Positions 1,889 to 50,400 are shown, numbered from the stretch's first letter. The stretch: 64,000 bases of DNA from Pirellulales bacterium (GCA_036499395.1 DASYDW010000063.1:5911-69910), one strand, 5' to 3'. Program-made: numbers and translations. Notes: generated by a model from the letters alone, not told the origin.

Positions 1889-1932
1889 ATAAGTATCTCG
1901 ATGTATGGCGACAATCCTGGCCGTCGCCTGTT

Positions 1933-15979: not shown

Positions 15980-16026
15980 ATCGTGGCAAGCGCCGGCAGC
16001 ATGGGGGACCGTCTAGATTCGTTTTC

Positions 16027-32880: not shown

Positions 32881-34011
32881 ATGCGGTTTTTCACCTTCGT
32901 CATCAAAAACCTCGTGCGGCGACGATTTCGATCACTACTGACCATCGCCGGCATTGGATTGGCCGTGGGGGCCATGATCGCACTGGTCGGTATATCGCGC
33001 GGCTTTGTCGACTCGTTCCTGGAATTGTATCAAGGACGAGGCATCGACCTGGTCGTCGTGCGGTCCGGCGTCGCCGAGCGCTTGACGAGCGCCCTGGACG
33101 AATCTCTCGGCGACAAGATCCGCCAGTTACCGGGAGTGAAGCAGGTAGCCGGTGTGATGATGGATGTGATGTCGTTTCCCGAACTCAATTTATTCGGCGT
33201 GCCGATCGTGGGATGGGAGCCTGACGCGTTCATGTTCGATAATCTGAAACTGGTATCAGGCCGATCGCCGACGGCCGACGATGGCCGAGTAGTAATGCTG
33301 GGAAACATTCTGGCGAAGAACATGGGCAAGACGACCGGTGACACGCTCGACGTTCTCGAGGACGAACCGTTTCAGATCATCGGCGTCTTCGAAAGCCTCA
33401 GCATGGTGGAAAACGGGTCGATGATCGTGACGCTCGCTGAATTGCAAAGATTGATGGATCGCCGTGGGCGGGTGAATATGCTTAATGTAATTGCCGAAAA
33501 TCGCTTTGACGAAGGATCGCTCGAGCAGCTACGGAGCGCGATCACGGCCGTGGCTCCCGGACTGTCGGCCATGACGACCGAGAATTTCGTCACCAGCGAT
33601 ACGCAGATTCGGGCGGCCCGGGGCATGGCGTGGATGACGTCGCTAGTTGCACTGTTGATCGGCTCGGTCGGAGTGCTGAATACAATGGTGATGTCGGTCT
33701 TCGAGCGGACTCAGGAGATCGGCATCCTACGTGCCCTGGGTTGGCGCAAGTCGCGCGTTGTGCGGATGATTTTGTTGGAAGCGATTCTGTTGAGCCTGGG
33801 CGGAGCGTTATTGGGGGCCGCAGGCGCCGTCGGCCTAACGCGGATGCTGAGTCGGGTGCCGGCGTTCAGCGGCTCGATCGCCAGTCACATTCCGCTGCCC
33901 GTCATTGCTCAAGGATTTTTGATCGCGCTATTCTTGGGATTGATTGGCGGACTTTATCCCGCGGTCTATGGCGCGCGGCTGCAGCCTACCGAGGCGATCC
34001 GACATGAATAA
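32881..34011 (+). CDS. ABC transporter permease, FtsX/MacB-LolC type (N-terminal TM, periplasmic domain, 3 C-terminal TMs)
   Basis: Opens MRFFTFVIKNLVRRRFRSLLTIAGIGLAVGAMIALV. The C-terminal FtsX block is EIGILRALGWRKSRVVRMILLEA ... YPAVYGARLQPTEAIRHE. Length 376 aa. Confidence 0.88.
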   Translation: MRFFTFVIKNLVRRRFRSLLTIAGIGLAVGAMIALVGISRGFVDSFLELYQGRGIDLVVVRSGVAERLTSALDESLGDKIRQLPGVKQVAGVMMDVMSFPELNLFGVPIVGWEPDAFMFDNLKLVSGRSPTADDGRVVMLGNILAKNMGKTTGDTLDVLEDEPFQIIGVFESLSMVENGSMIVTLAELQRLMDRRGRVNMLNVIAENRFDEGSLEQLRSAITAVAPGLSAMTTENFVTSDTQIRAARGMAWMTSLVALLIGSVGVLNTMVMSVFERTQEIGILRALGWRKSRVVRMILLEAILLSLGGALLGAAGAVGLTRMLSRVPAFSGSIASHIPLPVIAQGFLIALFLGLIGGLYPAVYGARLQPTEAIRHE

Positions 34012-34687
34012 TCCATCAACCAACGGTGATTTCCTCCGTACCAGCGGACTGACCAAGGATTACCCTGATGGCAAAGTCACGGCCCTCACAGACGTGAACC
34101 TGGTGATCCCGCGCGGACAGTACGCGGCCATCGTCGGGCCGAGCGGTTGCGGCAAGTCGACGCTGTTGAACCTGCTCGGCGCACTCGACCGGCCCACCTC
34201 AGGAGACGTTTATTTCGAGGGACGGTCGTTCGCCGCGATTGGGGACCTGGATCAGTTCCGCGCCCTGAAGCTCGGTTTCGTTTTTCAGTCGTTTTATCTG
34301 CTACCGATTTTGACCGCGCGCGAGAACGTGCAGATTCCAATGTTTGAAGGTTCACTGGGTGCGGCCGACCGGGCCGCGAGAGCCGGGGAGTTGCTGGAGT
34401 TGGTCGGTATGTCGCATCGGGCCCACCATCTGCCAAAGCAATTGTCGGTCGGCGAACGCCAAAGGGTGGCCATTGCCCGCGCCTTAGCGAATGCTCCTGA
34501 GTTGCTGCTGGCGGATGAACCGACGGGCAATCTGGATTCAAAGGCCGCGCAGGGTATTTGCGACATGTTCGAGCACCTGCACCGCGAACGCGGCATGACC
34601 CTGGTCCTGGTGACGCACGACCAGAACGTCGCTGATCGGGCCGAGCGCATCATTCGCATGCGCGACGGTCGCGTACTCGAGGCATAA
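34004..34687 (+). CDS. ABC transporter ATP-binding protein (MacB/LolD type)
   Basis: Walker A GPSGCGKST, signature LSVGERQRVAIARAL, Walker B LLLADEPT, H-loop VTHD. It overlaps the permease stop by 8 nt. Confidence 0.92.
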   Translation: MNNPSTNGDFLRTSGLTKDYPDGKVTALTDVNLVIPRGQYAAIVGPSGCGKSTLLNLLGALDRPTSGDVYFEGRSFAAIGDLDQFRALKLGFVFQSFYLLPILTARENVQIPMFEGSLGAADRAARAGELLELVGMSHRAHHLPKQLSVGERQRVAIARALANAPELLLADEPTGNLDSKAAQGICDMFEHLHRERGMTLVLVTHDQNVADRAERIIRMRDGRVLEA

Positions 34688-34749: not shown

Positions 34750-35817
34750 TTGCGTTGGCGCGGTCCGCCGTTTTTGTTAATCATGGGGGGCGCTCCGTGG
34801 CTACCCGCCCTCGACAATTGTTGCGAGATATTGCCTTTGTTCCGTCGAACCAGACTCCTTCTGCGCAGGCTTTCCCCCTTGGTGGGAATCGTCGTTCTGG
34901 CCGCGGTAGCCCGTCCGGCGGCCGGGGCAGATTCGGCCGTTGCCAGTAGTGGATACGACCTCCGCGAGCAATCGCTGCCGAGCATTCGCGCCGGCACGGT
35001 TATCGGCGCTGCGGCTCCTAAGAATTGGTCGCACCTGGTTATCAAAAGCCAGCCTCGCGTCGCGCAGGGCGATGTCAACGATGTATCGCAACTCACACTG
35101 TCGCTGGCGCGATTGCTGTCGGTCAGTATTGTCGCGAATATCGAGGCGAACGACGTGGGAAAGCATCCGCATTATGTGCTCGACCGCGTCGCCCTCGGTC
35201 TGGGAACGCGAATCGGTGGTCGGGACGTGATCATCAATAGCGACACGCAGTCGCAACTCGGCGCCAACCTAAGTTTGCTGGCCCGCACCGTGCTCAGTAG
35301 CACCGAGGCCGAGATGCAATTAATCAGGCAGGTGCTGCGGTCGCAGACCTTGCTGATCTTTGACGTACCCACGATCGCGTTGCTGCAATCGGAACATCAG
35401 CAGATGATCGTCCGTCACGCGCTGATCGTGGATGGGGCGAACGGCCAGTTGAACACGCTGGTCTGGCTCATCGACAAAAGTGACGCGGGGGAATATGCCC
35501 AGGCCGTCGGCACCATGAGTTTGCTCGCGCCCAACACTCTGGAAGACCGACTGCTGAGCGTTGATGCCAACGAATTCACCCTAGGAATTCCTTCGAGCAA
35601 GGCGATCGCGATGGTCCGCATCCCACCGGGAAAGCCAATTGCCATTGCTCCACCATTGCTCCCCTTCGCCTCGGCCCCCCGTTTTACCGATGAGAGCGCG
35701 CGGCAACTCGACGCCGGATTGCGGGACTTGATCCGCCAGGCACAGCGCGACCGAGCGACGGTTCGTGAAAACCCTGGTCCTCCGGCCGCCAACTCAGCCC
35801 GCCCTCGCGGCAAATAA
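34750..35817 (+). CDS. secreted or periplasmic hypothetical protein
   Basis: 355-codon ORF with a signal-like segment RRLSPLVGIVVLAAVARPAAGA. No recognisable motif. Same strand as, and directly after, the ABC ATPase. Start uncertain. Confidence 0.55.
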   Translation: MRWRGPPFLLIMGGAPWLPALDNCCEILPLFRRTRLLLRRLSPLVGIVVLAAVARPAAGADSAVASSGYDLREQSLPSIRAGTVIGAAAPKNWSHLVIKSQPRVAQGDVNDVSQLTLSLARLLSVSIVANIEANDVGKHPHYVLDRVALGLGTRIGGRDVIINSDTQSQLGANLSLLARTVLSSTEAEMQLIRQVLRSQTLLIFDVPTIALLQSEHQQMIVRHALIVDGANGQLNTLVWLIDKSDAGEYAQAVGTMSLLAPNTLEDRLLSVDANEFTLGIPSSKAIAMVRIPPGKPIAIAPPLLPFASAPRFTDESARQLDAGLRDLIRQAQRDRATVRENPGPPAANSARPRGK

Positions 35818-35839
35818 CATTTCCTCGAGTCACACCACG

Positions 35840-36727
35840 ATGTTTGTTCCAACGCTATTGCTCGCGTCGCTCTTGCTGGGCGCCGCGCACGACGACAATC
35901 CGATCCTGAAGCAGTTGGTCGACGCAGGTGTACCGGTCGGCTCGGGGGCACCGCTGAAACTACCGCCGCCCACGTTGCCCGATGGCCTGGACGCGGCCGC
36001 GCAGAAAAAAGCCATACAAGGAATTGCCGACGCCAACCATCCGGTCGATGCTTTGTTGCGTAAGTCGATTGTGTCGCCGTTTCAGCTGATCATTCGTAGC
36101 GAAGGGAATGCCACGGGCGACGTAACCGGTAAGCGAGTCGACATCTGGTGCGTCGTTTACGGAGACCTGTCGACCATCACCAAAGAGGGGTTCCTGGAGG
36201 AGCGGTTCTCGCTCGGATCGAAGGGAGAAAGCAACAACAAGCCCGCTGCGAAGTCCGTAATTCTATCCGCCGAGGAGTTGAAGAAGCGCAACATCCAGAT
36301 CGCGACCGCGGCTGACGCGAAAGAGGGTTTTGCATACGCCAGCTTTTCGCTCTTCGACCGTGTGCAGATTAGCGGGACGGGCCACGTGTATCAGACGCGG
36401 ACGAAGACGTCGGTCCTGATGGCCTCACTCCTGGCGCCTGGCTTTGCTGACGACGCGGACTTTGCCAACCGCTGGGCGGCCATCGATCGTGACAAGGAAG
36501 GGAATTTCAAGGTCGGCGCGCCGCATCCCTACGCAGGCTATGGATCGTACGTAAAGGTGACCGAGCTGATCGAACCGTCAGGGGCCCTGTTTGTGGAATA
36601 CCACTTGGTCTTCGACGAACCGAAAGCCTGGTTCAGCGGGGCGAATCTGCTGCGCTCGAAGCTACCACTGATGGTGCAAGACAATATTCGCAAGTTTCGC
36701 CGCGAAGTGGCAAGCGAGGCGCACTAG
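35840..36727 (+). CDS. secreted hypothetical protein
   Basis: Signal peptide MFVPTLLLASLLLGAAHD. 295 aa with no recognisable motif. Last gene of the plus-strand ABC operon. Confidence 0.6.
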   Translation: MFVPTLLLASLLLGAAHDDNPILKQLVDAGVPVGSGAPLKLPPPTLPDGLDAAAQKKAIQGIADANHPVDALLRKSIVSPFQLIIRSEGNATGDVTGKRVDIWCVVYGDLSTITKEGFLEERFSLGSKGESNNKPAAKSVILSAEELKKRNIQIATAADAKEGFAYASFSLFDRVQISGTGHVYQTRTKTSVLMASLLAPGFADDADFANRWAAIDRDKEGNFKVGAPHPYAGYGSYVKVTELIEPSGALFVEYHLVFDEPKAWFSGANLLRSKLPLMVQDNIRKFRREVASEAH

Positions 36728-36779: not shown

Positions 36780-37910
36780 TCAGTCGTGTCGTAGCGCGGC
36801 CGTGGGAAGAAGTCGCGCGCTGCGATAGGCTGGGTAGGCCGCCCCTACGAGCCCTACCATCAAAGCCAAAATCCACCCTTCGACCATGACGCGCCAGGGG
36901 ACCGTTCCATCGACTACTCCACTGGCAACGGGCAAGGTGCTCAGGAGCTTCGTCAAGCCGACGGCGCCAAGCGTTCCGATTGCCGCTCCGATCAAACTGA
37001 CGAGTAGCGATTCCGACAGGATCATGCGGACGATGCGTCCTTGACGCCAACCGATCGCGCGAAGGATGCCGATCTCACGCGTCCGCTCCAGTACCGTCAT
37101 GAACATGGTATTCAGCACGCCGATCGTCCCGACGATCAGGCCAATGAGCGCCGTCAGCCACGCCATCCCTTGCACGGCGCGGATCTGCGAAATGCCCGCC
37201 ACGTGATCCTTAATACTCATAGCGGTCAGTCCGGGACTGACCGCTTCTATATCCTTGGCGACGCGTTCAATTAGCGCGACGTTATTGGGTTCGGCAACGC
37301 TGACGGCAAAGCCGGTCACCTGGCCCGGCCGATCCATGAGTCGCTGCAAGTCGGCAAGCGCAATGACCATCGAGCTGTTGTCGAAGACATTGTGACTTTC
37401 ATAGATGCCGACGATGTTGAACTTTTCCAAAGCATAAAGTTCGATCGAATCGCCGAGTTTCTTGCCGAGGTTCTCGGCCAGCGTTCGCCCGATCAGCAAA
37501 GCCTGGCGATCGTCGCCCTGCAGGGCGCGCCCTTCAACGACGTTGAGGTTGCCGACGAGCCGCGACGAGGGCTGCAAGCCGCGCAACGGAACGCCGTACA
37601 GGTTCTGCTCTTCGAACGAGACAACGTCCAAGAGCGTAGGGATCACATCGACTATGTCAGGAACGGAGCGGATCTTATCGCCGATTTCGATGTCCAGGCC
37701 GCTATTTATCCGCTCTTGCACGCCGGTGCGAACGACGATCATGTCGATGCCGGCCCCCAGGTAGACGTCGAGGAAAGACGCCACAAAGCTGTCGGCGATT
37801 CCCACCAGCGCCACCATGGACCCGATCGCCACTGCCACGGCGATCACCGTCAACGCCGAACGCAACCAGCGACGCGTCACGTTGCGCCAGACGAGCGTGA
37901 ACAAATGCAT
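36780..37910 (-). CDS. ABC transporter permease, FtsX/MacB-LolC type, paralog of 32881-34011
   Basis: GGAGG lies 9 nt upstream of the ATG. Opens MHLFTLVWRNVTRRWLRSALTVIAVAVAIGSMVALV. It aligns along its whole length with the plus-strand permease, and both are exactly 376 aa. It starts 118 nt downstream of the NRPS stop on the same strand. Confidence 0.88.
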   Translation of the reverse strand: MHLFTLVWRNVTRRWLRSALTVIAVAVAIGSMVALVGIADSFVASFLDVYLGAGIDMIVVRTGVQERINSGLDIEIGDKIRSVPDIVDVIPTLLDVVSFEEQNLYGVPLRGLQPSSRLVGNLNVVEGRALQGDDRQALLIGRTLAENLGKKLGDSIELYALEKFNIVGIYESHNVFDNSSMVIALADLQRLMDRPGQVTGFAVSVAEPNNVALIERVAKDIEAVSPGLTAMSIKDHVAGISQIRAVQGMAWLTALIGLIVGTIGVLNTMFMTVLERTREIGILRAIGWRQGRIVRMILSESLLVSLIGAAIGTLGAVGLTKLLSTLPVASGVVDGTVPWRVMVEGWILALMVGLVGAAYPAYRSARLLPTAALRHD

Positions 37911-38028
37911 GAGAGGGGCACCTCCAAGACGGACCAAGACCGTGACTATCCCTGTCGCGGTCCGGTAGGTCAAGAGGCCATCGGTGCGATGCCGTCCTGC
38001 GCTGTTCAAACCGACTGAGCCTCGCGAA

Positions 38029-41000
38029 TCACGACTGCATCGTCAGATCCGGATCGATTCCGCGGGCTTCTTTGGCGGACAGCGGCGTCATCGCCGGCGC
38101 GCCATCAATTTCGAACTGCTTGCTGGCCCGCGCCAGCTGGCGACGCAACCGTTGTGCCAAGGTTCGCACGTGTGGTTCACGCATCATCGTCAGATGGTCG
38201 CCGGGAACCGTGCGGCTGCGCAGGTCTTCGGTCACATGATTTTCCCAAGAGGATGCTGCTGTCGGGACCTCGTCGCGGGGCCGCTCTTCGGCTTTCAACA
38301 GAGCGACGGGCCCCTGGTAGGATTGCGGACGAAACGCCAGCCAGGCGCGGCAATTCGCTTCGAACACTTCGTAGTGCCGCTCGATTTCCCAGCGATCCGC
38401 ACCCGGTTGAACTAGGCCGGCTCCCTCGATCTGGCGGCCAAAAAGAACTAGCTTCTCGGAGCGGGAGAGTGCCCGAATTTGGTCCGGCAGCATTTGCTCG
38501 ACGGAAGGAAACATCGACATCAACGCGGCAAAGGCGTCATCGCCTTCCTCTTGCGAATTGTCCTGCGCCGCCTGCGAGTCAATCAGCACCACTAGCGGCA
38601 CCTGCTCGCGAACATGGGCCAATTGCCGCGCCATTTCGTACGCCACGAGCCCGCCAAAGGACCAGCCTGCCAGGTAATAGGGGCCCTCGGGTTGGATCGT
38701 CCGGATTGCCTGAATGTAATCGCGGGCCATCGCTTCGACCGTCTCGTGAAAGGCTTCATGGCGAGCCAGGCCGCGCGACTCGAGCGCGTAAACCGGCTGA
38801 TCCGCGCCCAAGTGATGCGCCAAGGCGTAGTACGGAAAAGCGCTGCCGCCGGCCGGATGAACGCAGAATAGCGGCGGGCGATAGCCGGTTCGGCGAATCG
38901 CCACGAGCGGCGAACCACGATGCCGTGCCGCAGCCGCGCGCACCACCGCCGCCATCGTCGCGATCGTGGTGGCCGTGGCCATCTCGCTCGGCAGAAGGAC
39001 GATGTCGTTTCTCGCGGTGAATTTTGCCAGACATTGGTGGGCCGACTGCTGGCCGTCTCCCAGTCCGACGAGATTGTCTTCGACACCCAGCGGGCTGAGT
39101 CCCAACGTTTCCTGGCAAATATCGGTGAGCTCTGCTTCCAAGGCATTGCGGGGCGCGACATACCGGGAGAGGGCCGCTTCTCGCAGCGATGCGACGGACG
39201 CGCAGTCGACAATCATGTTGCGGAGGGCGTCGAGGAAGGCGCCTATCACGCGTTCGACCGTCTCGCGTTGATGTAACCCTTCGCAGTAGGTCCAGTCAAA
39301 GCGCAATTGGCCCCCCACGATCACGCCATTAATTTCCAGCAAATGCGTGCGATGCTGCCGCGACGAGCGCATCGAGCCGACCGACTCGCTTGCCGTGCGC
39401 AGCCGTCCGCCGGAATTCGCAAGCTGGTCGACCTGGCCGAGATAGTTGAAGGCGATCTCGGGTTGCGGCAGTGTCGCGAGCGCAGTGGTCACGGTTTCGT
39501 CCTGGCACAAGTACTTGAGCGTTCCGAATCCGATACCACGGCGAGGAATGTCCCGCAGCTGCGCTTCCATAGAGCTCACAGCGCGGCGGACGTCGGTTGT
39601 TTGATCAAGGCAGAGTCGAACCGGGAAGACACTTGTGAACCAGCCAACGGTACGCGACAGATCGACGTCGTCGAACAGGTCCTCGCGGCCGTGCCCTTCC
39701 AGATCGACCAGTAACGAATCTTCGCCGGTCCACTTCTGGAACGCTTGGGACAGGGCCGTCAGCAGGATGCTATTCAAGGGCGCGCGGTACGCGCGAGAAA
39801 CATCTTCCAGGAGCCGTCGCGTTTCGTCCACCGCGAGTGACGCCGATACAGTACGGGCGGAAGCGATCGAATTCTCCTCGCATCCCTTGTAAGCATGACC
39901 ATTGCTACCGGATTGTGTGTGGCCATTTCTCGTGTGCGAGGAAGTGGACGAAGCGGCGCCTTGGACCGGCAGGCGATCGACGGGGAGGTGCTTAAACGGA
40001 GCTTCCGCCAGCCGGAGCCAATAGTCGAGCTCCTCGCGAACCAGTGCCGACTGAGCGTACTCGATCAACCGCTCCGACCATCGCTGATACGAGGTCGTCT
40101 TGGCGTTCAAGCAGGGCGCCTCGCCGCGGCTGAGCTGCTGATAGATCAGATGCAAATCCTCGAGTAGGATGCGCCACGAGAAGGCATCCACCGCCAAGTG
40201 ATGAATGACGAATAGCAATCGACTCGGGCGTGCCGGACCAAGGTCGATCAGGCACACACGCACGAGCGGTCCCTCGGCCAGGTTCAAGCTCGCTTGCAAC
40301 TGCGTGGCAACGGCTTCGATCGCGTTCGGCTCCTCGCTGGTCGGAACTCCGGCAAGATCCACGCGGCAGTAGAGCTCGGCCTTATCGCTGGCGTCATTGG
40401 ATTGTTTCCAACCATTCTTCTCGCGAACAAAGCGCAGACGCAGAGCGTCGTGGTGCGCGACGAGATGCTCCACCGAGGCCTGCAGAAAGGAGGGTTCCAG
40501 GCGATCGTCGACTTCGAGCATGACCGCCTGGTTGAAGTGCTCAGGCGCGGCGAGTCGTTGTTCGAAGAACCAATGCTGAATGGGGGTTAACGGGACCGGC
40601 CCCACAACAGCTTCCTGTGCTGCTGCGGTGGCAAGGATCGGCACGGCCACGGTCGCCTGCTCGGCAACGGTTTGATGCTCGAATAACTGGCGTGGCGTCA
40701 GGCGCAATCCGACGCGTGCGGCGCGCGAGATGACTTGCATACTCAGGAGTGAGTCGCCGCCAAGTTCGAAGAAATTGTCGTGAATTCCGACCCGCTCCAA
40801 ACCGATCACGCCGGCCCAAATATCGGCCAGGGTCACTTCGACGTCGGTACTCGGGGCTACGTAGCATTGGTCGAGCACGGGACGGCTGCGATCGATCCCG
40901 GGCAAGCTATTCCGATCGACCTTACCGTTGGGGCTTACCGGCAGAGCCGGCAGCGCGACGAAAGTGGACGGGATCATATAGTCGGGAAGATGCGACTTGA

Positions 41001-44000
41001 TGAACTGATGCAGTTCCGTGGTCGTGGGCGCCGGAAGTTCGCCTGTGCCGACGTAGGCCACCAGCCGCTTTTCGCCCGATTCCTGTTCGCGCACGACAAC
41101 GACTGCTTCGCGGATTGCGGGGTGCGCGGTCAGCGCCGCTTCAATTTCTGGCAACTCGATGCGGAAACCGCGAACCTTGACTTGATCGTCGATTCGCCCC
41201 AGGAATTCCAGCTTGCCGTCAGCCCGGTAGCGAGCCAGGTCGCCCGTGCGGTACAGACGTCCGCCGGATCGACCGCTGAAACGATCGGGCAAGAACTTTT
41301 CAGCCGTCAGCTCGGGGCGATTCAGGTAGCCACGCGCCACGCCGACACCGCCGATATAGATCTCGCCGGGCATGCCATGCGGCACTGGTTCGAGGTGCCG
41401 ATCAAGCAAGTACACATTGACGTTGGCGAAGGGGCGGCCCAGGGCGGGCGCGCGTCCCTCGCCCGCATGGCATTCCCCTTCGGTTGCGCCTACCGTTGCT
41501 TCGGTGGGGCCGTAACCGTTGATCATTCTCCGGCCCGGCGCCCAACGATCGACCAATTTCGCTGAGCAGGCCTCGCCGGCGACGACCAACGTGCTCAAAT
41601 GTGGCAGAGGGGCGGCAGGCAATACCGACAAGACCGACGGTGGCAGGATGACAAACGTGATGCGATGATCGTCGAGCAACCGGACTAGATCAGGTCCTGG
41701 TATCAACGCGTCCTCGGGCGCCATGTATACCGATCCACCCACGGCTAACGTGGCAAAGATCTCCAGGACCGAGGCGTCGAAGTTGGGCGAAGCGAATTGC
41801 AATGTTCGACGTTCGCTGCCAGGACCGATCCATCGTGCGGCCACGGCCACGGCATTGCACACGCCACGGTGCTCGATGAGTGCACCCTTGGGCTGCCCGG
41901 TGGATCCGGAAGTGTAAATCACATAGGCCAGATTATTGGCAGTGGCCGTCCGTTGGGGATTCTCGGTCGACGCGGAGCAATCGCCTGCCGTTTCGTCGGC
42001 GAACACCATCCGGGTATTTTGCGCGGCGAAAACCGTGGCGAGTTCACGGGAGGTGACGACTACGTCGAGCTGTGCGTCGCGGAGGATCAGGTCGAGCCGC
42101 GCGGCGGGGTAATGTGGATCGAGCGGCACATAGGCGCCCCCCGCTTTGAGAATACCCAGCATGCCGGCCACTAGCTCGACCGATCGATTGAGGCAGATGC
42201 CGACCAAGACGTCGGGGCCGACACCCATCGTGCAGAGGCGATGCGCCAATCTGTTGGCCCGCTCGTTGAGCTGACGGTAAGTGAGCACCTGCTCTTGGAA
42301 ACAAAGGGCGACGGCATCGGGGTTTTCTTCCACCTTGCGCTCGAACAATTCATGAACGCACACGTCGTCGGCAAATCGGATCCGTTCGCCTGCTGCCGCG
42401 GCGAGCAGACGTTGGCGGTCATGCATACCTACCAGCGTGAGCTTCGAGATCGGATTGTCCGGTGCGGTGACCGCGGCGCCCAACAGCGTTTGGAAGGATT
42501 CGAGCAGGTGTTCGACGTTCTCCTGATCAAATAGATCCGTATTATATTCCAGCCCACCAACGAGTCGGCCGGCCTCTTGCCTGAGCGAGAGGGTAAGGTC
42601 ATGCCGCGCTGTGCCATTGTGAACTTCTTGGAAGGTCAAGTTCGGTCCGGTGAATTCGAGCGGCGCGTTCTGCAGGATGAGTGCCGCCTGGTAGAGCGGT
42701 GAGTGGCTCAGTACCCGCCGCGGCGCAAACGCCTCGACCAATCGCTCGAACGGAAGGTCCTGATGCTCGTACGCTTCCAGGGTGACCTGTCGTGTCCGTG
42801 CTAGCAGGTCGCGGAACGTCGGATCGCCTGACAGGTCGCCGCGCATCACAAGAGTGTTGACGAAAAAGCCGATCAGCCCTTCCACCTCTGGTCGGGTTCG
42901 ATGGGCAACGGCCGTGCCCACGCTGATGTCGGCTTGGCCCGTATAGCGCGAGAGAAGCGTCTGAAACGCCGCGAGCAGCGTCATATACAGCGTCGCCTGC
43001 TGCTCACGGCTAAACTGCTCCACCGCTTGCGACAGGGAGAGCGGTAGGCTCACGGGAAGGAGCGCGCCGTGAAACGTCTGCAGCGCCACACGCGGTCGAT
43101 CAGTCGGCATCGCGAGCACTGCAGGCCCGTCTTCCAGCTTGCCTCGCCAGTATTCGAACTGCGGGCTAAGCGCATCGTCGGTGCATGTTGTCCGCTGCCA
43201 GGCGGCGAAATCGGCGTATTGAATATCGAGGTCCGCCAGTGGTGATCGTTGACCGTTGGAAAAGGCCTCATAGATCAATAGAAGTTCGCGGAGAAAAACA
43301 CCCATCGACCAGCCATCGGAGATGATGTGGTGCATCGCCAACAGCAGCACGTGCTCGTCTGCCGTCAAATGCAGGTGCGTCACGTTCCACAGCGGGCCGG
43401 TCGCCAGGTCGAAGCGTTGCCGCGCCGCGGCCGATGAGATGCGCTCGACCTCGGCAGCGCGATTCATCGTGTCGAGTTCGCGTAAATCAAATTGCGCGAT
43501 CGGAACGGCGCCCAACGAGCTTACGCGTTGCTGCGGCAGTCCGCCCGCATCCACAAACGTCGTGCGAAGCGATGCATGGCGGCGAGCAATTTCCGCAAGG
43601 CTCTTTTCCAGCAGCGCCGTCTGCAGGTCGCCGCGGAAGCGCGCTGAAAGACAGAGGTTGTTTACCGGTACTTCCGGCAGCAATTGGTCGACAAACCACA
43701 ACCGCTGCTGCCCAAACGAGAGCGGCGAATCGTCCCGCTGATCGGCAGGGACGATCTTCGTAGGGCTTGCCGCGGAAGGGGTGGCGTAGTTCCGTTCAAC
43801 GACAGGGGCCAACTCGGCGACCGTGGGATGAGCAAACAACTCGCGCAGCGGCAGAGTGACGCCGCAAGCCGCCGAGACGCGCGACATGAGTTGCGTCGCC
43901 AGCAGTGAATGGCCACCGAAATCGAAGAAGTTGTCGTGGATTCCCAGGTCGTCCTGGCGAAGCACTTCGACCCAGATCTTCAGCAGCGTTCGCTCGGTAT

Positions 44001-45798
44001 CGGTGCGTGGGGGGACTGCTTCTCGCCCCTCGGCTCCGCCGCTGCTATTGTCGCACCGGCTGGCGTTCCATTGTGTCACGACCGCCAGATGGTCACTCAG
44101 ATAATCATCGCGGCAGGATCGGCGGCGGATCTTGCCGCTGGTCGTTTTACCGATGGTGCCGGCCTTGATCAGCACGATGGCTTCGACTGGCAGGTCGTGC
44201 TCAGCGAGTATTGCGCCACGTATCGACCTTACGATCTCGTTGAGATCGAGTTGCTTGGGACGGGTGACTTCCTGCACGACGACGAGCCGTTCTTGACCGT
44301 CGCGTTCCATCGAGAACGCCGCCCCGCCATCGATCTTTAAGGCCGGGTTGCAGGCCCAAATGGTGCGCTCGATGTCTTGCGGATAATAGTTCCGGCCACA
44401 GATGATAATCAGGTCCTTGAGTCGGCCGGTGACATACAGCTCGCCGGCATGCAAGAACCCCAAGTCGCCGGTGCGCAAAAACGGACCATCACCGGAGTCC
44501 GCCAGGCGAGCCGCGAACGTGCTCCGCGTCTCCTCGGGACGATTCCAATAGCCCTGCGCCACGCCGGGGCCGCGTACCCAGATTTCTCCTACGCGATCGG
44601 ATGCGGCGCGCGTGAGCGTTTGCGGATCGACGATCACGACCTCGGTTTCCTCGATCGCGGGACCACAGCTTGCCAGGGTTCGTGAATTCGATTTCCCATT
44701 CAAATTGGCAACGACCTGATTCTCCTCCAGATTCGTTGCACAAAAGTCACCGACGGTGTAGAGACTTTCGTGGTCTCCGCCAGTGACGCCCAAGGTGGCT
44801 TCGGCCAGCCCGTAACAGGGAACGAACGCCGTCGGGCGAAAGCCACAGGGGGCGAAGGTCTGAGTGAATCGCTCCAACGTGTCGCGACGAACCGGCTCGG
44901 CGCCATTGAGGATGACTGCCAGGCTGGTCAGATCGAGGGCTTTGATCTCCGCGGGCAGTACCGTTCGCGAGCAAAGATCGAAGGCAAAATTCGGGGCGCC
45001 GGTGATTGTGCCACGATAGCGGGAAATCGCCTCGAGCCACCGAATGGGCCGTTGCATGAAGTCTAGCGGCGACATGGAAATCGTCTGTCGGCCAGCATAC
45101 ATCGGCAGGAGCACGCCACCGATCAAACCAAAGTCGTGGTAGGCGGGCAGCCAAGTAACGCCAACGACGCCTTGGCTCTGGCCGCGGTCGATCTTCGCCA
45201 CGTTGTAGAGCAGGTTGGCGTGGCTCACCATCACACCGCGCGGCGTACCGGTTGAGCCGGAGGTGTATTGCAATAACCCCAGTGTCGTAGAGGTAATCGT
45301 CGGCGGCGTCCAATCGTCTTCGCACCCGACAGGGAGTGCGTCGGTGGCCAATATCATGCGAATCGAGGGACCGATCGTCACGAGTGCCTGGACCCAAGTC
45401 AGACTGTTCGCCGTGCCGAGCACCGCAACGGCCTGTGCGTCGTTGCACACGGCCTGCAGCCGGGGAAGCGTGCGATCCATGCGCAATGGATCAGGCGGAT
45501 AGAGCGGTACCGGTGTCACGCCGGCGTATAAGCAACCAAAGAATGCGGCAATGTAGTCAAGCCCTGGCGGATACAACAACAAGGCCCGGCCGCCGGTGGC
45601 GCCCGCGGCATTCAATCGCACCGCGATGCGGCGCGCGATCACGTCCAACTGACCGTAAGTGAGATTGAGCTCGTCTCGTTCGCCGTCAGTCAGGAACGTA
45701 TAAGCGATCTGATCCGCTTGGAGGTTTGCCCGGTAGCGGCACATTTCCAGAAACGTTTCCACTTCTGGAATCGGTAAGTCCCTCGATAACTCCGACAT
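38029..45798 (-). CDS. non-ribosomal peptide synthetase, single amino-acid module with lipo-initiation: FAAL-T-C-A-T-E-T*(degenerate)-TE
   Basis: One uninterrupted ORF. Domain motifs are listed in the domain features below. The ATG at 45798 (MSELSRD) is preferred; an alternative TTG lies at 45816. Confidence 0.93.
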   Translation of the reverse strand: MSELSRDLPIPEVETFLEMCRYRANLQADQIAYTFLTDGERDELNLTYGQLDVIARRIAVRLNAAGATGGRALLLYPPGLDYIAAFFGCLYAGVTPVPLYPPDPLRMDRTLPRLQAVCNDAQAVAVLGTANSLTWVQALVTIGPSIRMILATDALPVGCEDDWTPPTITSTTLGLLQYTSGSTGTPRGVMVSHANLLYNVAKIDRGQSQGVVGVTWLPAYHDFGLIGGVLLPMYAGRQTISMSPLDFMQRPIRWLEAISRYRGTITGAPNFAFDLCSRTVLPAEIKALDLTSLAVILNGAEPVRRDTLERFTQTFAPCGFRPTAFVPCYGLAEATLGVTGGDHESLYTVGDFCATNLEENQVVANLNGKSNSRTLASCGPAIEETEVVIVDPQTLTRAASDRVGEIWVRGPGVAQGYWNRPEETRSTFAARLADSGDGPFLRTGDLGFLHAGELYVTGRLKDLIIICGRNYYPQDIERTIWACNPALKIDGGAAFSMERDGQERLVVVQEVTRPKQLDLNEIVRSIRGAILAEHDLPVEAIVLIKAGTIGKTTSGKIRRRSCRDDYLSDHLAVVTQWNASRCDNSSGGAEGREAVPPRTDTERTLLKIWVEVLRQDDLGIHDNFFDFGGHSLLATQLMSRVSAACGVTLPLRELFAHPTVAELAPVVERNYATPSAASPTKIVPADQRDDSPLSFGQQRLWFVDQLLPEVPVNNLCLSARFRGDLQTALLEKSLAEIARRHASLRTTFVDAGGLPQQRVSSLGAVPIAQFDLRELDTMNRAAEVERISSAAARQRFDLATGPLWNVTHLHLTADEHVLLLAMHHIISDGWSMGVFLRELLLIYEAFSNGQRSPLADLDIQYADFAAWQRTTCTDDALSPQFEYWRGKLEDGPAVLAMPTDRPRVALQTFHGALLPVSLPLSLSQAVEQFSREQQATLYMTLLAAFQTLLSRYTGQADISVGTAVAHRTRPEVEGLIGFFVNTLVMRGDLSGDPTFRDLLARTRQVTLEAYEHQDLPFERLVEAFAPRRVLSHSPLYQAALILQNAPLEFTGPNLTFQEVHNGTARHDLTLSLRQEAGRLVGGLEYNTDLFDQENVEHLLESFQTLLGAAVTAPDNPISKLTLVGMHDRQRLLAAAAGERIRFADDVCVHELFERKVEENPDAVALCFQEQVLTYRQLNERANRLAHRLCTMGVGPDVLVGICLNRSVELVAGMLGILKAGGAYVPLDPHYPAARLDLILRDAQLDVVVTSRELATVFAAQNTRMVFADETAGDCSASTENPQRTATANNLAYVIYTSGSTGQPKGALIEHRGVCNAVAVAARWIGPGSERRTLQFASPNFDASVLEIFATLAVGGSVYMAPEDALIPGPDLVRLLDDHRITFVILPPSVLSVLPAAPLPHLSTLVVAGEACSAKLVDRWAPGRRMINGYGPTEATVGATEGECHAGEGRAPALGRPFANVNVYLLDRHLEPVPHGMPGEIYIGGVGVARGYLNRPELTAEKFLPDRFSGRSGGRLYRTGDLARYRADGKLEFLGRIDDQVKVRGFRIELPEIEAALTAHPAIREAVVVVREQESGEKRLVAYVGTGELPAPTTTELHQFIKSHLPDYMIPSTFVALPALPVSPNGKVDRNSLPGIDRSRPVLDQCYVAPSTDVEVTLADIWAGVIGLERVGIHDNFFELGGDSLLSMQVISRAARVGLRLTPRQLFEHQTVAEQATVAVPILATAAAQEAVVGPVPLTPIQHWFFEQRLAAPEHFNQAVMLEVDDRLEPSFLQASVEHLVAHHDALRLRFVREKNGWKQSNDASDKAELYCRVDLAGVPTSEEPNAIEAVATQLQASLNLAEGPLVRVCLIDLGPARPSRLLFVIHHLAVDAFSWRILLEDLHLIYQQLSRGEAPCLNAKTTSYQRWSERLIEYAQSALVREELDYWLRLAEAPFKHLPVDRLPVQGAASSTSSHTRNGHTQSGSNGHAYKGCEENSIASARTVSASLAVDETRRLLEDVSRAYRAPLNSILLTALSQAFQKWTGEDSLLVDLEGHGREDLFDDVDLSRTVGWFTSVFPVRLCLDQTTDVRRAVSSMEAQLRDIPRRGIGFGTLKYLCQDETVTTALATLPQPEIAFNYLGQVDQLANSGGRLRTASESVGSMRSSRQHRTHLLEINGVIVGGQLRFDWTYCEGLHQRETVERVIGAFLDALRNMIVDCASVASLREAALSRYVAPRNALEAELTDICQETLGLSPLGVEDNLVGLGDGQQSAHQCLAKFTARNDIVLLPSEMATATTIATMAAVVRAAAARHRGSPLVAIRRTGYRPPLFCVHPAGGSAFPYYALAHHLGADQPVYALESRGLARHEAFHETVEAMARDYIQAIRTIQPEGPYYLAGWSFGGLVAYEMARQLAHVREQVPLVVLIDSQAAQDNSQEEGDDAFAALMSMFPSVEQMLPDQIRALSRSEKLVLFGRQIEGAGLVQPGADRWEIERHYEVFEANCRAWLAFRPQSYQGPVALLKAEERPRDEVPTAASSWENHVTEDLRSRTVPGDHLTMMREPHVRTLAQRLRRQLARASKQFEIDGAPAMTPLSAKEARGIDPDLTMQS
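38137..38874 (-). other. NRPS domain: type I thioesterase
   Basis: PLFCVHPAGGSAFPY, GWSFGG nucleophile elbow (Ser codon 2386, 38659-38661), and a late GDHLTMM His region. Confidence 0.88.
38941..39162 (-). other. NRPS domain: degenerate carrier-like domain lacking the phosphopantetheine serine
   Basis: YVAPRNALEAELTDICQETLGLSPLGVEDNLVGLGDGQQSAHQCL aligns without gaps to the YVAPxxxxExxLxxIWxxxLGxxxxGxxDNFFxLGGDSLxAxQL consensus. The core GGDS is replaced by GDGQ (39046-39060). Confidence 0.7.
39202..40602 (-). other. NRPS domain: epimerization (E) domain
   Basis: PLTPIQHWFF, HHLAVDAFSWRIL (HH at 40198-40203), EGHGRE (39682-39699), RTVGWFTSVFPV. These motifs together separate E domains from ordinary C domains. 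The domain contains a Ser/Thr/His/Gly-rich low-complexity insert. Confidence 0.8.
40627..40854 (-). other. NRPS domain: peptidyl carrier protein 2
   Basis: IHDNFFELGGDSLLSMQV, with Ser codon 1689 (40750-40752). Confidence 0.88.
40909..42363 (-). other. NRPS domain: amino-acid adenylation domain
   Basis: LTYRQLNERANRLA, LAYVIYTSGSTGQPKG, FDASVLEIF, NGYGPTEATV, GEIYIGGVGVARGYLNRPELT, YRTGDLARY, KVRGFRIELPEIE, NGKVDR. Confidence 0.9.
42412..43734 (-). other. NRPS domain: condensation domain (probable starter/lipid-accepting C)
   Basis: SFGQQRLWFVDQL (C1) and MHHIISDGWS (C3; the HH pair is at 43327-43332). Confidence 0.85.
43771..43998 (-). other. NRPS domain: carrier protein 1 (acyl carrier)
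   Basis: IHDNFFDFGGHSLLATQL. The phosphopantetheine Ser is codon 637 counted from the TTG ORF start at 45816 (43906-43908). Confidence 0.85.
44032..45798 (-). other. NRPS domain: fatty acyl-AMP ligase (FAAL)-type adenylation domain
   Basis: TFLEMCRYRANLQADQIAYTFL opening, QYTSGSTGTPRGVMVSHANL, YGLAEATL, FLRTGDLGF, GKIRR. It is followed directly by a carrier domain, not a CoA-ligase context. Confidence 0.8.
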
Positions 45799-47491
45799 GC
45801 TCAGCCCTTTGCCCAATCTTCAATCGCATCGCGAAGCATTTAAAGGAAGGTCGCGATCCATGAAATACGACCGCCTGACGTCGACCGGGCGGTCTAATGA
45901 CCAGTGCCGGACGAGGTCGAATTTGCAGGCGACGTGCCTGAAACAGGCGTGCATTCAAGAAAGCGCAGTCCAACCCTATATGTTACTATTGTCTTTCCCC
46001 GTCTAGACATTAGTACAGTGGCTCCGCACCGCCTCCCAGGCTACCTTGCCGCAAAACGACCCTCAAGTAAAAACCCCAAGAGGCCAGGCGTTTCTGCGTG
46101 CTACACTGGTCCGATTTTGTCCCCTATTCCGGCCAGTTCGAAGGGATACCGTTCACTAATGGCGGTCCGGCATCCCGAAAAATGGCCACTCGAAGGGGAA
46201 ATACTTCTTCGATAAAAATGAGTTGAACAGCCCACTCAGTAGCCGGCGCTGAAATTGCACTAATCGAATCGGTGGGACCGCAGCGATGGGCGCCGGTCAG
46301 AAATTATCCATGCATACTGAGTGGTGCGCCACTGCCGCGAACTACTTCTCCGATTTGCTTCGGTCCGACACACCGACGCAGTGGTGCGAAAACAAAGTCC
46401 GGTATCCGCCCATCCGGCACAGTCGAAGCGCATGAATCGTTTCAGAAAACGACCAAATAACGAGACGAGTAAAGTACCAACGTCCGCCGTTATCGAATGC
46501 TGCAAACGGACAAGCGGTCCGGTTGTGCTCGGACGGCAATGACATCACCGGAACGAGCAGTTGCGGAAAGTTGTCATTTCTAAGACTGCTCCGTTTTAGG
46601 AACCTTTGATAGGACCCATTGGTGTGCTGCTGCGACTAAATTAGAGTTTCGCGTTCGCTCCGTTTCACCGCATTGACCCGAATGGGCGGTATTGGGGAAA
46701 AACGCGCGGCCGACCCGCCATACGCCAGGCGCTTCGAACGCTTCCTCGCCATTTCCACATACGCAGGCCGTACTTGATGCGATTTGCAATCTTCGCGCCC
46801 TTGACGATGCCGACGGCATCGGCGACGGATTTTTTGGTCAGACAGTGCCTCCGATTACATCCATCACAACAAGAGATCGGAACCTTCGGGCAAAGAAGGG
46901 CTGCTCGATGTGCGGATAATCGATGGTCTGCGACGCTCCTATCTTGGGTATCGCACGATCAAGCTGCAGCCCCTGGCCAGAGTGCAGCGTCCGTATCGCG
47001 GCTAGCCCATTAAGAGACGCCCTACGAGAAAGCCCGCGCCGGTGAAGGCCCCTCCTCCTTCGAAAAAGTTGGAACTGTAACGCAGCATCATGGCGGTCAC
47101 GAATCGGGCCGGAACGGCGCTGTTTGCATCCGCGGATTTGTTGCGGATGAATTTCCGTGGAAATGCCAGGAAGGCGATTGGTATTAGTTGCCGTGCGACT
47201 CGTCGTGTTTGCGAGTGAAAGTCGCTGACGGCCATGTTCTCTGGCTCTCATTTGTTCAAGGCAGATGGGGGGCTTATCGCCGGTGCGTCGCGCATTGCCC
47301 GCGCTATGTAGTTGCCGTCGTGACAAGTCCCCCCTATGTGCGACGAGTTGCGCGCAAATCCTGCGTTGTGACTTGTTTCTGCGCTGCGCGATGTTTACAA
47401 CGTGCGCCTACCAACTGCGCTACATCGAGTGCAAAGCCTGGCGAACAGTCTTCGCAGGTCTTGGTAACCGCGGCTTTCTAAGGGGGCATCC

Positions 47492-50400
47492 GTGGGTGAA
47501 AATTCTGGCTGGTCGTCCACCAACGTCTTGCTGCCCGGCGCGATTGCGCTGGCCTTGGCGATCACAAGCTACTTGACCTATGAGCCGACGCTGACATCCG
47601 TTCGACCGGCGGCACGTACGGTCCACGGGATTCCCCCGCCACCGACCCCGGATGGGATGGAGGCGTTCTATTCGCGATTGTGGGAAGACCCCCTGCTGAC
47701 CTCGTACAACAACCAGACAGCCAAAGGTGACGCGAACGCAAAGGATGACGCAAAACCGCAGCCGACTTATACAGCTGGTCCGGTGCCGTTGAACGAAGAC
47801 TGGGATGCGGCCTACAAGGACACCTTCACGAAGATTCTGAAGAAAAGTCACGGCAGCCTGCTATGCGTGCCCGTACTCGTTCCTGGCGGACCGTATGCGG
47901 ACGACGGCGAAGCGCGGATGCGAACCCGTTACGCGATCCAGATGGGGCTCGCCCGCGCGGGCTATGAGCTGGCCTTTCCGATGCAAATGAGCTACGTCGA
48001 CGTACCTGTGACCGTCGACATCGACGACGTCCCCGTACAAGTGTGTGCGAAACGATTTCGCGTTCCGGTGAAAATCTTTAGCTTTCGCTCGGAATCAAAG
48101 AAGGACAAAGGCAAGAATCAGCCTGACTTTGTCGTCGTCTTGTGGATTAACGAAGACGAAGCAGGTAGCCGGCTATTGAACGTGGTCGACCAGGTAGTCG
48201 CTGCGCTGTTCAGGCCAAAACGGCGCAGCGAAAGCGTGCGCGACCAGTTTCGCGCTGATCGCGAGTGGCGCGCGCGGATGAGCGTCCGCGTGATCGGGCC
48301 CTCCTCGTCCGACGGCCTGCGAAAAATCTACTTAGAGCAGCGCAGCACCCACCCGCATAAGACCGAGCCGCAGATCCCGCTCGCCGGCTTTCGCGACCCA
48401 AAGATTTATTCGCCGCGCGCCACGATTTCACACGATGAGCTGGAAGAGTTGGTAAACGAGCAACTCGCGATTCGGCAAGCGTCAAGCGGCAACAACGCCC
48501 GAGCCGAGATGAAGACGGCGACCTCGGTCGCTGTGTTTCCTCCCATCATTCGCACGATCGGCGATGACAACGTGCTGATCGAGGCGTTGATTGGCGAGCT
48601 AAAGCGGCGTAATCATTGGCTGCCGCCACCGGAATGCGACTGCAAAGTCGCACCAACGCAGCCGGACGACCATTATGGCGCGAAGAGGGAGCGAACCGGC
48701 GACAGGCAGAAGGGTGGGGCCATCGTGCTGGTCTCCGAGCAAGACACTCTCTATGGCCGGACATTTTCCAGGTTGCTCGATGACCGTCGTCCGGGCCACT
48801 CGCTCTACAGATACTCGTTCTTTCGCGGCCTCGACGGCGCGATACCCGGCGATCGAGCACCGGCGATCGAGTCCGAGCTACATAGCCTGTTGGATCGCGC
48901 GCAACATCCTGTGACAAGCCAAGACGGCGACAACGAGCCTCGCCCGACCGGCAAGGGACAAGCCGATTATCTGCGGCGGCTGGAATCGAAGTTAGTTGAT
49001 TTGGACGACCGAGAATGGGAACACGGCATCGCAGCCATTGGCGTTGTGGGCACTGACCAGTACGACAAGTTACTATTCCTGCGCGCGCTACGGCGACAAT
49101 TCCCGCGCGCCGTCTTCTTCACCACCGATCTCGACGCGGACTTCGCACATCCTAGCGAGCGTTTGACAACCCGCAACGTCGTCGTGGCATCGCATTTTGG
49201 CTTGCAGCTGAGTTCAGCGTTGCAGTGGGATGTACCGCCGTTTCGCGATTGCTACCAGACGTCGACTTTTTTCGCGGCCTTATTGGCGCTCGGCCCGAAA
49301 GCGGTCGATGATCTGCCGGAATCCGTGAAGAACAATCCGTGGGGCGAGCACGGAAACAGCACAGATGCGGAACACTTGAAACCATTGGTTTATGAAATCG
49401 GTCTGGACGGGCCGTACCAGTTGACGATCCCCCAAGGCCCGTACGAAACCGACGGCCAAACTCAGGTTCAGCCGGATAGCCCACGGAGCTTTTTGCCGTC
49501 GTCGCGCCGCTTGGCGGCATTGTTAATGGCGACCGTGTCGCTAGTAATGCTTCTGATCGTGAGCTTCACGTGGCCGCGTCGGCTGATTCGGTCAGAACGT
49601 ACCAAGAGCTTTGCGACATTTCTAGTCGCGCTCGGCGGGATGACGATTGGTTTTGTGACACTATTCTTGGTTCTATGGGCACTGGAGTTGTTTGATCATC
49701 ACCGTGACGACGGTGAGCCCTTTTCATGGAACCGGGGCATTAGTCTATGGCCGACGATCTTGATTCAACTCTTGGCGGGCGTGACGGCGTTTGTCTTGTT
49801 CTTGTCCAGTTGCAATGACCTGAAGAAGCTACGTAACCACTTCTGGAAATGGGCCAACCCGGTTCTCCCCAAGGACTCTAAGCCGCCAACATCTGGTCAG
49901 GCGTTTCGAAATATGTCGTGGCAGGAAAGGGCCGCCTATGTCTGGGACGACGTTCTGACGTTTAATTGGCATGCCCAGGCTGCTGACGAAATCTATTCTG
50001 CCCGCAAGCTGTGCGCCGAATACGTCGAACGATCGCAATGGTGGCATCGGATGCTGCGCGTCGTGCCACAGGTGGCGTTATTCGTGGCGTTTACGATCTG
50101 CTTGTTTCAAATTACCGCACTCCCCACACGTCCCTTTCGTGGCTGGCTGTGCTATCGGGCTTCTTCCATTGCAATTCTTGTGGCTTTGTTTTCACCGGTC
50201 GTACTATCCTTCTTCATGATCGACGCGATGCAACTGTGCCGGCGTTATATTCGCCTGTTGGAGCAGGCCACTCCCGACTGGCAGAACCGCGAGTTCAGCG
50301 ACCTGATGAAGGCCAGGGTATTTCCGTCAACTGGGGACGACCAACAGTCGGCGAATGCTGAACTCACGCCGAATGACGCCGAGCAAAAGCCGAGTGATGG

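Follow-up and report, generated by a model that had tools for sequence, protein, structure and literature searches.

PvdL and SfmA/SafA, among the known systems closest to the enzyme described here, are nonribosomal peptide synthetases (NRPSs) in which an N-terminal fatty-acid adenylation domain and a carrier (T) domain are followed in cis by condensation (C), adenylation (A) and T domains; further modules follow, and the acyl chain serves as a temporary handle for a larger peptide. ClbN-type modules (colibactin, xenocoumacin, zwittermicin), ordered C-A(Asn)-T-E, where E is an epimerisation domain, yield N-acyl-D-Asn, and the serrawettin W1 synthetase SwrW is a single C-A-T-TE module with a starter C domain and a thioesterase (TE) that dimerises or cyclises. 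ACV synthetase (A-PCP-C-A-PCP-C-A-PCP-E-TE, PCP denoting a peptidyl carrier protein) releases LLD-ACV by its T-E-TE terminus, and the cystomanamide enzyme CymD ends in C-A-PCP-E-TE; in both, the last loaded carrier is followed by the E domain and this by a hydrolytic TE, which leads to a C-terminal D-residue. Here we analyse a 64,000-nucleotide stretch of DNA from Pirellulales bacterium (GCA_036499395.1 DASYDW010000063.1:5911-69910, hereafter the window), the minus strand of which encodes an NRPS with the order FAAL-T1-C-A-T2-E-T*-TE, FAAL standing for a fatty acyl-AMP ligase and T* for a carrier-like domain without the phosphopantetheinyl serine. On balance we favour reading it as a functional single-module lipoinitiation NRPS of Planctomycetota that makes an N-acyl-D-amino acid, with Lol/MacB-like handling of the lipid.

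The gene is a single uninterrupted open reading frame (ORF) of 7.8 kb, with 2595 codons when counted from the first TTG, in keeping with the roughly 2590 codons of an initial annotation made from the sequence. The NCBI protein P0001, a metagenome-assembled genome (MAG) entry from a contig of ~480 kb labelled 'amino acid adenylation domain-containing protein [Pirellulales bacterium]', is 100% identical to it; with an internal GTG as start codon it has 2577 aa. Pfam was run on the translation in eight overlapping segments, and residue numbers refer to the first-TTG translation. Pfam, NCBIfam and PDB matches recovered the eight domains in the order that the annotation had proposed, all the peptide motifs that it quoted are present in the translation, and inspection of motifs showed the catalytic ones to be intact across the domains. 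Segment-wise Pfam showed a single amino-acid A domain and no second one. The gene and its domains are as follows:

38029..45816, minus strand: NRPS gene, FAAL-T1-C-A-T2-E-T*-TE (ORF translation, Pfam by segment)
44077..45732, minus strand: FAAL-type adenylation domain, residues 29-580 (PF00501 and PF23024, NCBIfam, PDB)
43807..43989, minus strand: carrier T1, residues 610-670, GGHS with Ser637 (PF00550, E 4.5e-18)
42403..43737, minus strand: C domain, residues 694-1138, HHIISDGWS, LCL-like by similarity (PF00668, 327 bits; PDB ranking)
40921..42345, minus strand: amino-acid A domain, residues 1158-1632 (TIGR01733, 468 bits; PF00501 and PF13193, AMP-binding_C)
40654..40833, minus strand: carrier T2, residues 1662-1721, GGDS with Ser1689 (PF00550, E 1.9e-15)
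39196..40596, minus strand: E domain, Condensation-family, residues 1741-2207 (Pfam, TIGR01720, PDB, motifs)
38920..39162, minus strand: T*, vestigial carrier, residues ~2219-2299 (weak NCBIfam match, T-TE alignment, AlphaFold2 (AF2) model, Foldseek)
38140..38877, minus strand: TE, residues 2314-2559, with Ser2386 (GWSFGG), Asp2413 and His2541 (GDH) (PF00975, 131 bits)

The assignment of the first adenylation domain as a FAAL is borne out by its best matches, which are fatty-acid--AMP ligase families in NCBIfam and FAAL structures in the PDB. The DIP2-like C-terminal subdomain (PF23024) is present. The top NCBIfam match is a whole-NRPS model of the PvdL type (NF004282, 507 bits), which matches the C, A and E segments as well, followed by fatty-acid--AMP ligase families at 451, 417 and 415 bits; acyl-CoA ligase families score far lower. 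The closest structures are 7R7E (563 bits) and the Legionella protein 3KXW (449 bits), then FadD32, FadD23, FadD28 and the E. coli FAAL. Downstream come the serine-bearing T1 and a C domain with HHxxxDG, the order of domains known from lipoinitiation. By PDB scores this C domain is LCL-like, with 311-314 bits to Txo1/Txo2, 233 to TycC6 and ~200 to the fuscachelin PCP-C structure, against 113-115 bits to the starter domain of SrfA-A and ~52 to that of RzmA, and it thus scores unlike a classical starter (Cs) domain; within the relatives of the NRPS it is equally similar to internal LCL domains and to the first C domain after FAAL-T. An LCL-like C domain fits condensation on an L-aminoacyl acceptor preceding epimerisation, and E domains of elongation modules act after condensation.

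The A domain has the Asp235 and Lys517 suited to an alpha-amino acid, and its specificity code, DAIIVAGVGK, describes a hydrophobic pocket; extraction of the code reproduced the pocket that had been read by eye (L, I, V, A, G, V, G). The PDB neighbours of the whole domain differ in what they activate (Val, Arg/Tyr, Ser, Leu and Phe) and show no pattern, and comparison with known codes gave agreement at generic positions only, so that no substrate was assigned. The following carrier, T2, has the motif FFELGGDSLL, and GGDS is found in the NRPS and in every orthologue; GGDS in place of GGHS is characteristic of carriers that work with an E domain. The next domain, which might have been an ordinary LCL condensation domain, sides with solved E domains (253-334 bits to those of PvdL, BacC, TycA, TycB and GrsA, and at most 47 to C domains). 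It passes TIGR01720 (103 bits, cut-off 74) and has a complete set of core motifs, namely PIQHWF (E1), HHLAVDAFS, EGHGRE, RTVGWF and FNYLG, and the description of it as a bona fide E domain therefore stands. A low-complexity loop rich in His, Asn, Gly and Ser is inserted in the E domain at about residues 1945-1985 (window 39862-39982, minus strand); the insertion is also present in the orthologous locus L083, absent from L084 and reduced to ~8 residues in P0382.

Between E and TE lies the segment T*, which the initial annotation had called carrier-like and serine-less. PF00550 gave no match to it even at E <= 1, and no Pfam family was found at residues 2200-2320. Two whole-NRPS models of NCBIfam match it weakly in their carrier region (E 1.2e-6), and T*-TE aligns as a single unit to the T-TE of multimodular NRPSs, at 39.6% over 356 aa with P0076 and at 30-34% identity with a series of Sorangium enzymes. 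In a multiple alignment T* is collinear with true carriers over its full length; the phosphopantetheinyl-serine site is occupied by Gln2256, and by P, P, P, L, N, P and P in seven relatives, with no Ser or Thr conserved at or near the attachment site across the eight sequences. An AF2 model built from 15 sequences placed a carrier before an alpha/beta-hydrolase TE, T* having four-helix carrier topology (helices at tail residues 26-39, 57-70, 77-82 and 86-99) with a predicted local distance difference test (pLDDT) of ~80-92 and Gln2256 at the start of helix 2. The modelled T*-TE can be superposed over ~350 columns onto the PCP-TE didomains of AB3403 (E 1.2e-24) and EntF. Given the alignment, the missing serine and the four-helix model with its PCP-TE superposition, T* is a true carrier homologue that is folded but dead. 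Conservation is lower in T* (40-47% identity) than in any other domain (46-81%), as fits a relic under relaxed constraint, yet its N-terminal half is well conserved (YVAPR-ALEAEL..C.E.LG.SP[IL]G).

The columns of the TE Ser-Asp-His triad are invariant among orthologues. Its Foldseek neighbours are NRPS and polyketide synthase (PKS) TE domains, including the TE of Pks13, an acyl transferase, and epimerising and cyclising TEs. The initial annotation had called the placement of E-T*-TE after the module's own T domain not a textbook arrangement; as regards an E domain ahead of a TE, the ACV synthetase and CymD termini correct this, together with the many A-T-E-TE proteins of metagenomic databases, in which the E-TE linker has 30-45 residues. 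Direct E-TE fusions occur in other metagenomic proteins, and here E and TE are held apart by the ~80 residues of T*. Within the NRPS, the dead T* between E and TE is the only new element.

At least six other sequences, from Planctomycetota or from metagenomes, share this architecture, with per-domain identities of 40-81%. Full copies are encoded by L083 (2593 aa, JGI metagenome 3300063276), by L084/L085 (2565 aa, with a fragment, L002; JGI 3300013769, SRR2062633) and by P0382 (2533 aa); in L001/P0122 (GCA_942492195.1) the architecture is complete and is split by a frameshift in the A domain near L001:9600, and L003, L004 and P0423 are partial copies. All family members keep HHxxSDGWS in the C domain, HHLxxDxxS, EGHGRE, RTVGWF and FNYLG in the E domain, GWSFGG, Asp and GxH in the TE, GGHS or GGQS in T1 and GGDS in T2. 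A contiguous E-T*-TE was found in only three clusters (P0121, P0382 and P0122) among 1.84 billion cluster representatives, with P0487 as a more distant match. In a scan of one genome per species, the only matches exceeding 38% identity were L003 and L004, both from a single 'Planctomycetaceae' MAG; a metagenome scan gave, among the matches listed, generic T-TE sequences and, at 46-49% identity, two TE fragments. Longer NRPSs dominated the first whole-protein search, and the second gave only proteins shorter than ~1250 aa; both were word-indexed and biased by protein length, which makes the family count a minimum. Among full-length homologues the best are PvdL-like synthetases, 4300-4400 aa long, that start FAAL-T-C-A-T(-E). 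The NRPS family is thus real, under selection, rare and apparently confined to Planctomycetota, and the conservation of architecture and motifs among its members argues for a functional enzyme rather than a wreck. In the L001 locus (3142-16006), where the A-domain code reads DAGQLAGVGK, FabD-like and short-chain dehydrogenase/reductase (SDR) genes lie upstream and a P450 gene stands between the NRPS gene and an FtsX-type permease gene. The A-T-E-T*-TE copy of L004 (1-3894) is followed by a MarR regulator and a flavin adenine dinucleotide (FAD)-dependent enzyme with a halogenase-like N-terminus (GGGPAG...HIGESLIP).

Compared with the described systems, the NRPS shares with PvdL and SfmA/SafA the N-terminal fatty-acid adenylation domain, carrier and C-A-T in cis, but stops after one amino acid. 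With ACV synthetase it shares the E domain ahead of a TE; there, however, E is fused directly to TE and the product is a tripeptide without a lipid starter, whereas here the serine-less T* intervenes. A ClbN-type module likewise makes the thioester of an N-fatty-acyl-D-amino acid, its E domain acting on an acylated single residue, but it has a starter C domain, an external acyl donor, specificity for Asn and no TE, in contrast to the FAAL-T in cis, the hydrophobic pocket and the TE of the present enzyme, the code of which has none of the Asn-defining residues. SwrW is likewise a single-module lipo-NRPS joining one fatty acid and one amino acid, without FAAL-T, E or T*. The gut Clostridia proteins OaaA/OaaACP/OaaC form fatty acid amides by adenylation with the help of a carrier and a C domain (PMC13310621). 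They use a free amine as acceptor and have neither an amino-acid A domain nor an E or TE domain, and so cannot invert the configuration. Pirellulales do make N-acyl amino acids, the stieleriacines of Stieleria, with N-acyl amino acid synthase (NAS) enzymes such as NasY (PMC12479983). NAS enzymes are small acyl-ACP (acyl carrier protein)-dependent transferases, unlike the NRPS, and no small NAS acyltransferase gene was found among its annotated neighbours; a link to the stieleriacines was rejected, their pathway being NAS-based and not NRPS-based (PMC12479983). Our literature search turned up neither an enzyme nor a product characterised for this domain combination, and no relevant account of lipoamino acids made by a one-module FAAL-NRPS. 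Every chemical element of the NRPS is thus precedented, the combination is conserved and rare, and known NRPS logic is not overturned. The locus predicts a second, NRPS-based route to planctomycete N-acyl amino acids, one that could yield D-configured products; very few links between genotype and product exist in this phylum.

The simplest product to fit these domains would be an N-acyl-D-amino acid. The domain identities, the intact motifs, the loss of serine in T*, the conservation and the synteny are observed, whereas the chemical steps, the substrate, the mode of release and the export are inferred, the chemistry from established NRPS logic. In the proposed sequence of events, the FAAL would adenylate a free fatty acid and load it onto T1, and the A domain would load T2 with an alpha-amino acid. 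The LCL-like C domain would then form an N-acyl-L-aminoacyl-S-T2 intermediate, the C-alpha of which the E domain would equilibrate. As T* has no serine, T2 itself must visit A, C, E and TE; the TE would take the D-epimer from T2 and release it, most simply by hydrolysis, as the N-acyl-D-amino acid. T*, on this reading the dead carrier of an ancestral T-TE didomain left behind by the loss of a downstream C-A pair, could carry no substrate and would be kept as a structural spacer or a partner of the TE. The lipid product would probably be handled by two MacB/FtsX permeases (FtsX1 and FtsX2), an ATPase of the ATP-binding cassette (ABC) type and a secreted protein with a START-like fold, all encoded next to the NRPS gene:

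36780..37910, minus strand: FtsX1, MacB/FtsX permease (MacB_PCD), 376 aa (likely ATG at 37910, GGAGG upstream)
35837..36727, plus strand: unk320, secreted START/SRPBCC-like protein, 296 aa, convergent with FtsX1 (AF2, Foldseek)
34783..35817, plus strand: unk355, secreted protein, no relative in Pfam, NCBIfam or the PDB, start codon uncertain (synteny)
34004..34687, plus strand: ABC ATPase, likely ATG at 34004, overlapping FtsX2 by 8 nt as in L084 (PF00005, E 8.7e-34)
32881..34011, plus strand: FtsX2, second MacB/FtsX permease, 376 aa, 48% identical to FtsX1 (Pfam, alignment)

A MacB/FtsX permease 118 nt downstream of the NRPS on the same strand had been reported in the initial annotation, and both the domain and the spacing were reproduced, the FtsX1 ATG lying 118 nt past the NRPS stop codon. 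The gap has no terminator-like site; it does have a weak match to a sigma-70-like promoter, and FtsX1 may thus have its own promoter. As for the annotation's proposal that the permease is an export partner, the co-orientation holds, whereas the picture of a lone permease gene does not, since FtsX1 is one of two paralogues that come with an ATPase and two secreted proteins. FtsX2, the ATPase gene, unk355 and unk320 form a four-gene operon convergent with FtsX1. The six-gene arrangement FtsX2-ABC-unk355-unk320 facing FtsX1-NRPS is identical in L083, L084, L085 and L003, and in L002 as far as the contig reaches, and FtsX1 follows the NRPS gene on the same strand in six loci (L083, L084, L085, L002, L003 and L001, in the last after the P450 gene). 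Two permeases and one ATPase are also the composition of LolCDE, a type VII ABC transporter like MacB, and the weak best matches of the FtsX proteins are to LolC/E, with 78 bits to TIGR02212 against a cut-off of 362. LolCDE works with LolA and LolB, however, and this locus, scoring far below the Lol cut-offs, instead has two secreted proteins, one of them START-like; no LolA/LolB or HlyD-type gene was found among the annotated neighbours of the FtsX/ABC set.

No Pfam, NCBIfam or PDB sequence match was obtained for unk320. Its AF2 model (70 homologues, pLDDT 90.5) returned START domains as all of the top 12 Foldseek matches in the PDB, with probabilities of 0.99-1.00 and E-values of 2e-4 to 9e-4 at template modelling (TM) scores of only 0.40-0.55; they include CERT, StAR, MLN64, STARD4 and ACOT11 with myristate. 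The protein is therefore modelled as a START-like helix-grip fold, with lipid binding as a prediction. For unk355 there was no relative in Pfam, NCBIfam or the PDB, where a profile search came back empty, yet orthologues accompany the cluster in L083, L084 and L003 (54-62%) and in L086 (31%). To their L002 counterparts, unk320 is 74% and unk355 60% identical.

Several observations weigh against the favoured reading. The C domain falls outside the starter (Cs) clade by its PDB scores, and its proposed transfer of a fatty acyl group rests on domain order and on the precedent of PvdL and SfmA. The A-domain code varies among orthologues (DAIIVAGVGK, DALLAALVGK, DAGLTAGVGK and DAGQLAGVGK), and a full-text literature search gave no published match to the NRPS code or its near variants. 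No phosphopantetheinyl transferase (PPTase) gene was seen among the genes of the 64-kb window, nor did a motif scan of the window reveal an MbtH-like gene. Sequence and fold of the TE fit hydrolysis, cyclisation, oligomerisation or transfer alike. The relative P0487, ordered C-A-T-E-T-TE, has a second carrier with an intact GGNS, and a working second carrier at the position of T* is therefore possible in principle. On the side of export, the paralogous NRPS gene of L004 is not followed by an FtsX gene, and five of six sampled loci with unk320 homologues of 43-49% identity (L087, L088, L089, L090 and L091) have no NRPS within 10 kb.

The last two points are the strength of the most serious competing explanation, a substantial minority view in our estimation, by which the FtsX set is a general Lol-like envelope system of Pirellulales, perhaps working with an SppA-type S49 peptidase, and merely adjoins the NRPS gene, the product being exported otherwise or retained in the membrane. 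Homologues of unk320 number more than 230, all annotated as 'hypothetical' and largely from Pirellulales, and in L087-L091 the homologue adjoins a Peptidase_S49 (SppA-like) gene, which it follows, and/or an FtsX-ABC-FtsX set, to which it is convergent; the possible promoter of FtsX1 points the same way. Among the few named sequences of the 120 matches listed, no second unk320 copy from the MAG of the window was identifiable. Mere adjacency is, however, at odds with the recurrence of FtsX1 behind the NRPS gene in six loci, including the divergent L001, where, of the FtsX/ABC set, only this permease (after the P450 gene) goes with the NRPS. It is also at odds with the sixth of the sampled loci, L086 (14712-20864), in which a differently built, bimodular FAAL-NRPS (FAAL-T-C-A-T-C-A(MT)-T-TE, 3542 aa, P0076-like) adjoins the same module and a Peptidase_S49 gene. 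In a distance tree, moreover, the NRPS-linked FtsX1 and FtsX2 sequences form clades of their own, apart from two NRPS-less clades. This suggests that the NRPS-linked genes are a specialised, paralogous offshoot of a general envelope module, recruited to the products of FAAL-NRPSs. The wider START-like/FtsX family mostly occurs without an NRPS, and coupled export of the NRPS product by the FtsX/ABC set is therefore no more than plausible. A stronger version, in which the six genes form a dedicated envelope-lipid pathway, is speculative and in our view improbable: a D-lipoamino acid made at the inner membrane would be pulled out by the Lol-like FtsX1/FtsX2 and ATPase and ferried across the periplasm by the START-like protein and unk355 to the outer membrane or the medium, T* being kept to position the TE against E and T2. 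If it were true, the START fold, which is not known in that role, would serve a bacterial Lol/MacB-type ABC transporter as periplasmic partner. The START-like/FtsX-ABC-FtsX genes with Peptidase_S49 may themselves constitute an undescribed Lol-like module of Pirellulales for envelope lipids or lipoproteins; the module is widespread and uncharacterised, and may bear on the movement of lipids or lipoproteins through the periplasm of these diderms.

A second alternative keeps the enzyme and changes its product. Here the TE would oligomerise or cyclise, giving a serratamolide-like dilactone if the fatty acid were hydroxylated, or would transfer the N-acyl-D-aminoacyl group to another nucleophile, for example an amine, a sugar or the head group of a lipid. 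The TE neighbours by NCBIfam and structure include the Pks13 TE, which passes its product to trehalose, and cyclising and epimerising TEs; the single C-A-T-TE module of SwrW yields a cyclic dimer, and the FabD-like, SDR and P450 genes of L001 could supply or introduce the hydroxyl. On the other hand, similarity between TEs at 25-30% identity is no predictor of chemistry, T-E-TE termini of the ACV synthetase type hydrolyse, and no hydroxylase or acceptor-supplying gene adjoins the NRPS gene in the window, in L083 or in L084. We therefore consider oligomerisation or transfer unlikely for this locus, although, as TE chemistry cannot be read from sequence, it stays a live rival to hydrolytic release, especially in loci like L001.

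Still less probable is the idea that T* remains in use, through modification of another residue or as a docking site for a separate NRPS or carrier, and that the product is larger than one acyl-amino acid. The conserved N-terminal half of T* does point to a retained interaction surface, and P0487 retains its intact carrier between E and TE; but no conserved Ser or Thr is available near the T* site in the eight sequences, and no other NRPS, carrier or A-domain gene was found in the window or the conserved flanks. Under the favoured reading, the origin of T* is probably to be sought in an ancestral terminus ...T-E-C-A-T-TE that lost C-A, after which the orphan carrier lost its serine. Consistent with this loss, T*-TE is most like ordinary T-TE didomains, the bimodular FAAL-NRPS of L086 adjoins the same transporter genes, and the relatives P0487, with its intact second carrier, and P0474, with a shortened second A domain, are known. 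P0474 is ordered C-A-T-E-C-A-T-TE, its second A domain being reduced to ~150 residues, and the two proteins may represent stages in the loss of a second module. That the NRPS is an evolutionary wreck, once bimodular and now nonfunctional or working only as a fragment, we think very improbable: T* is dead and least conserved, the L001 copy is frameshifted in its A domain and P0474 shows another partly deleted second module, yet the frame is uninterrupted, every copy keeps the motifs, with identities of 46-81%, and lineages that are only ~50% identical keep the architecture, conservation not expected without selection, and the lone frameshift may be an artefact of the MAG assembly in which it lies. 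The dead carrier between E and TE looks instead like a natural module loss that left a working enzyme, which could be of use for NRPS engineering, as it bears on the reach of a carrier and on the neighbour that a TE requires.

Elsewhere in the window, the ~1.7 kb upstream of the NRPS gene (45817-47491) lacks a convincing ORF, matches nothing in Rfam and shows no similarity to the sequences upstream of the L083 or L084 genes. Beyond it, and divergent from the NRPS gene, 47492-50872 (plus strand) encodes a predicted membrane protein of 1126 aa without a Pfam or NCBIfam match, which is not found upstream of the L083 or L084 NRPS genes. A sulfotransferase (30883-31842, plus strand) and a sulfatase (50909-52537, minus strand), which flank the cluster, were considered as tailoring genes and rejected; they are missing from the orthologous loci and are therefore probably unrelated. 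A protein of 2947 aa encoded at 6383-15226 (minus strand) has GH94 supersandwich, catalytic and glucoamylase-like domains and resembles a cyclic beta-1,2-glucan synthase. Finally, a 509-aa ORF at 1259-3462 (minus strand), 35 kb from the NRPS gene and adjoining a PAP2 phosphatase gene, has a sub-threshold Condensation match (23 bits) and may encode a stand-alone acyltransferase.

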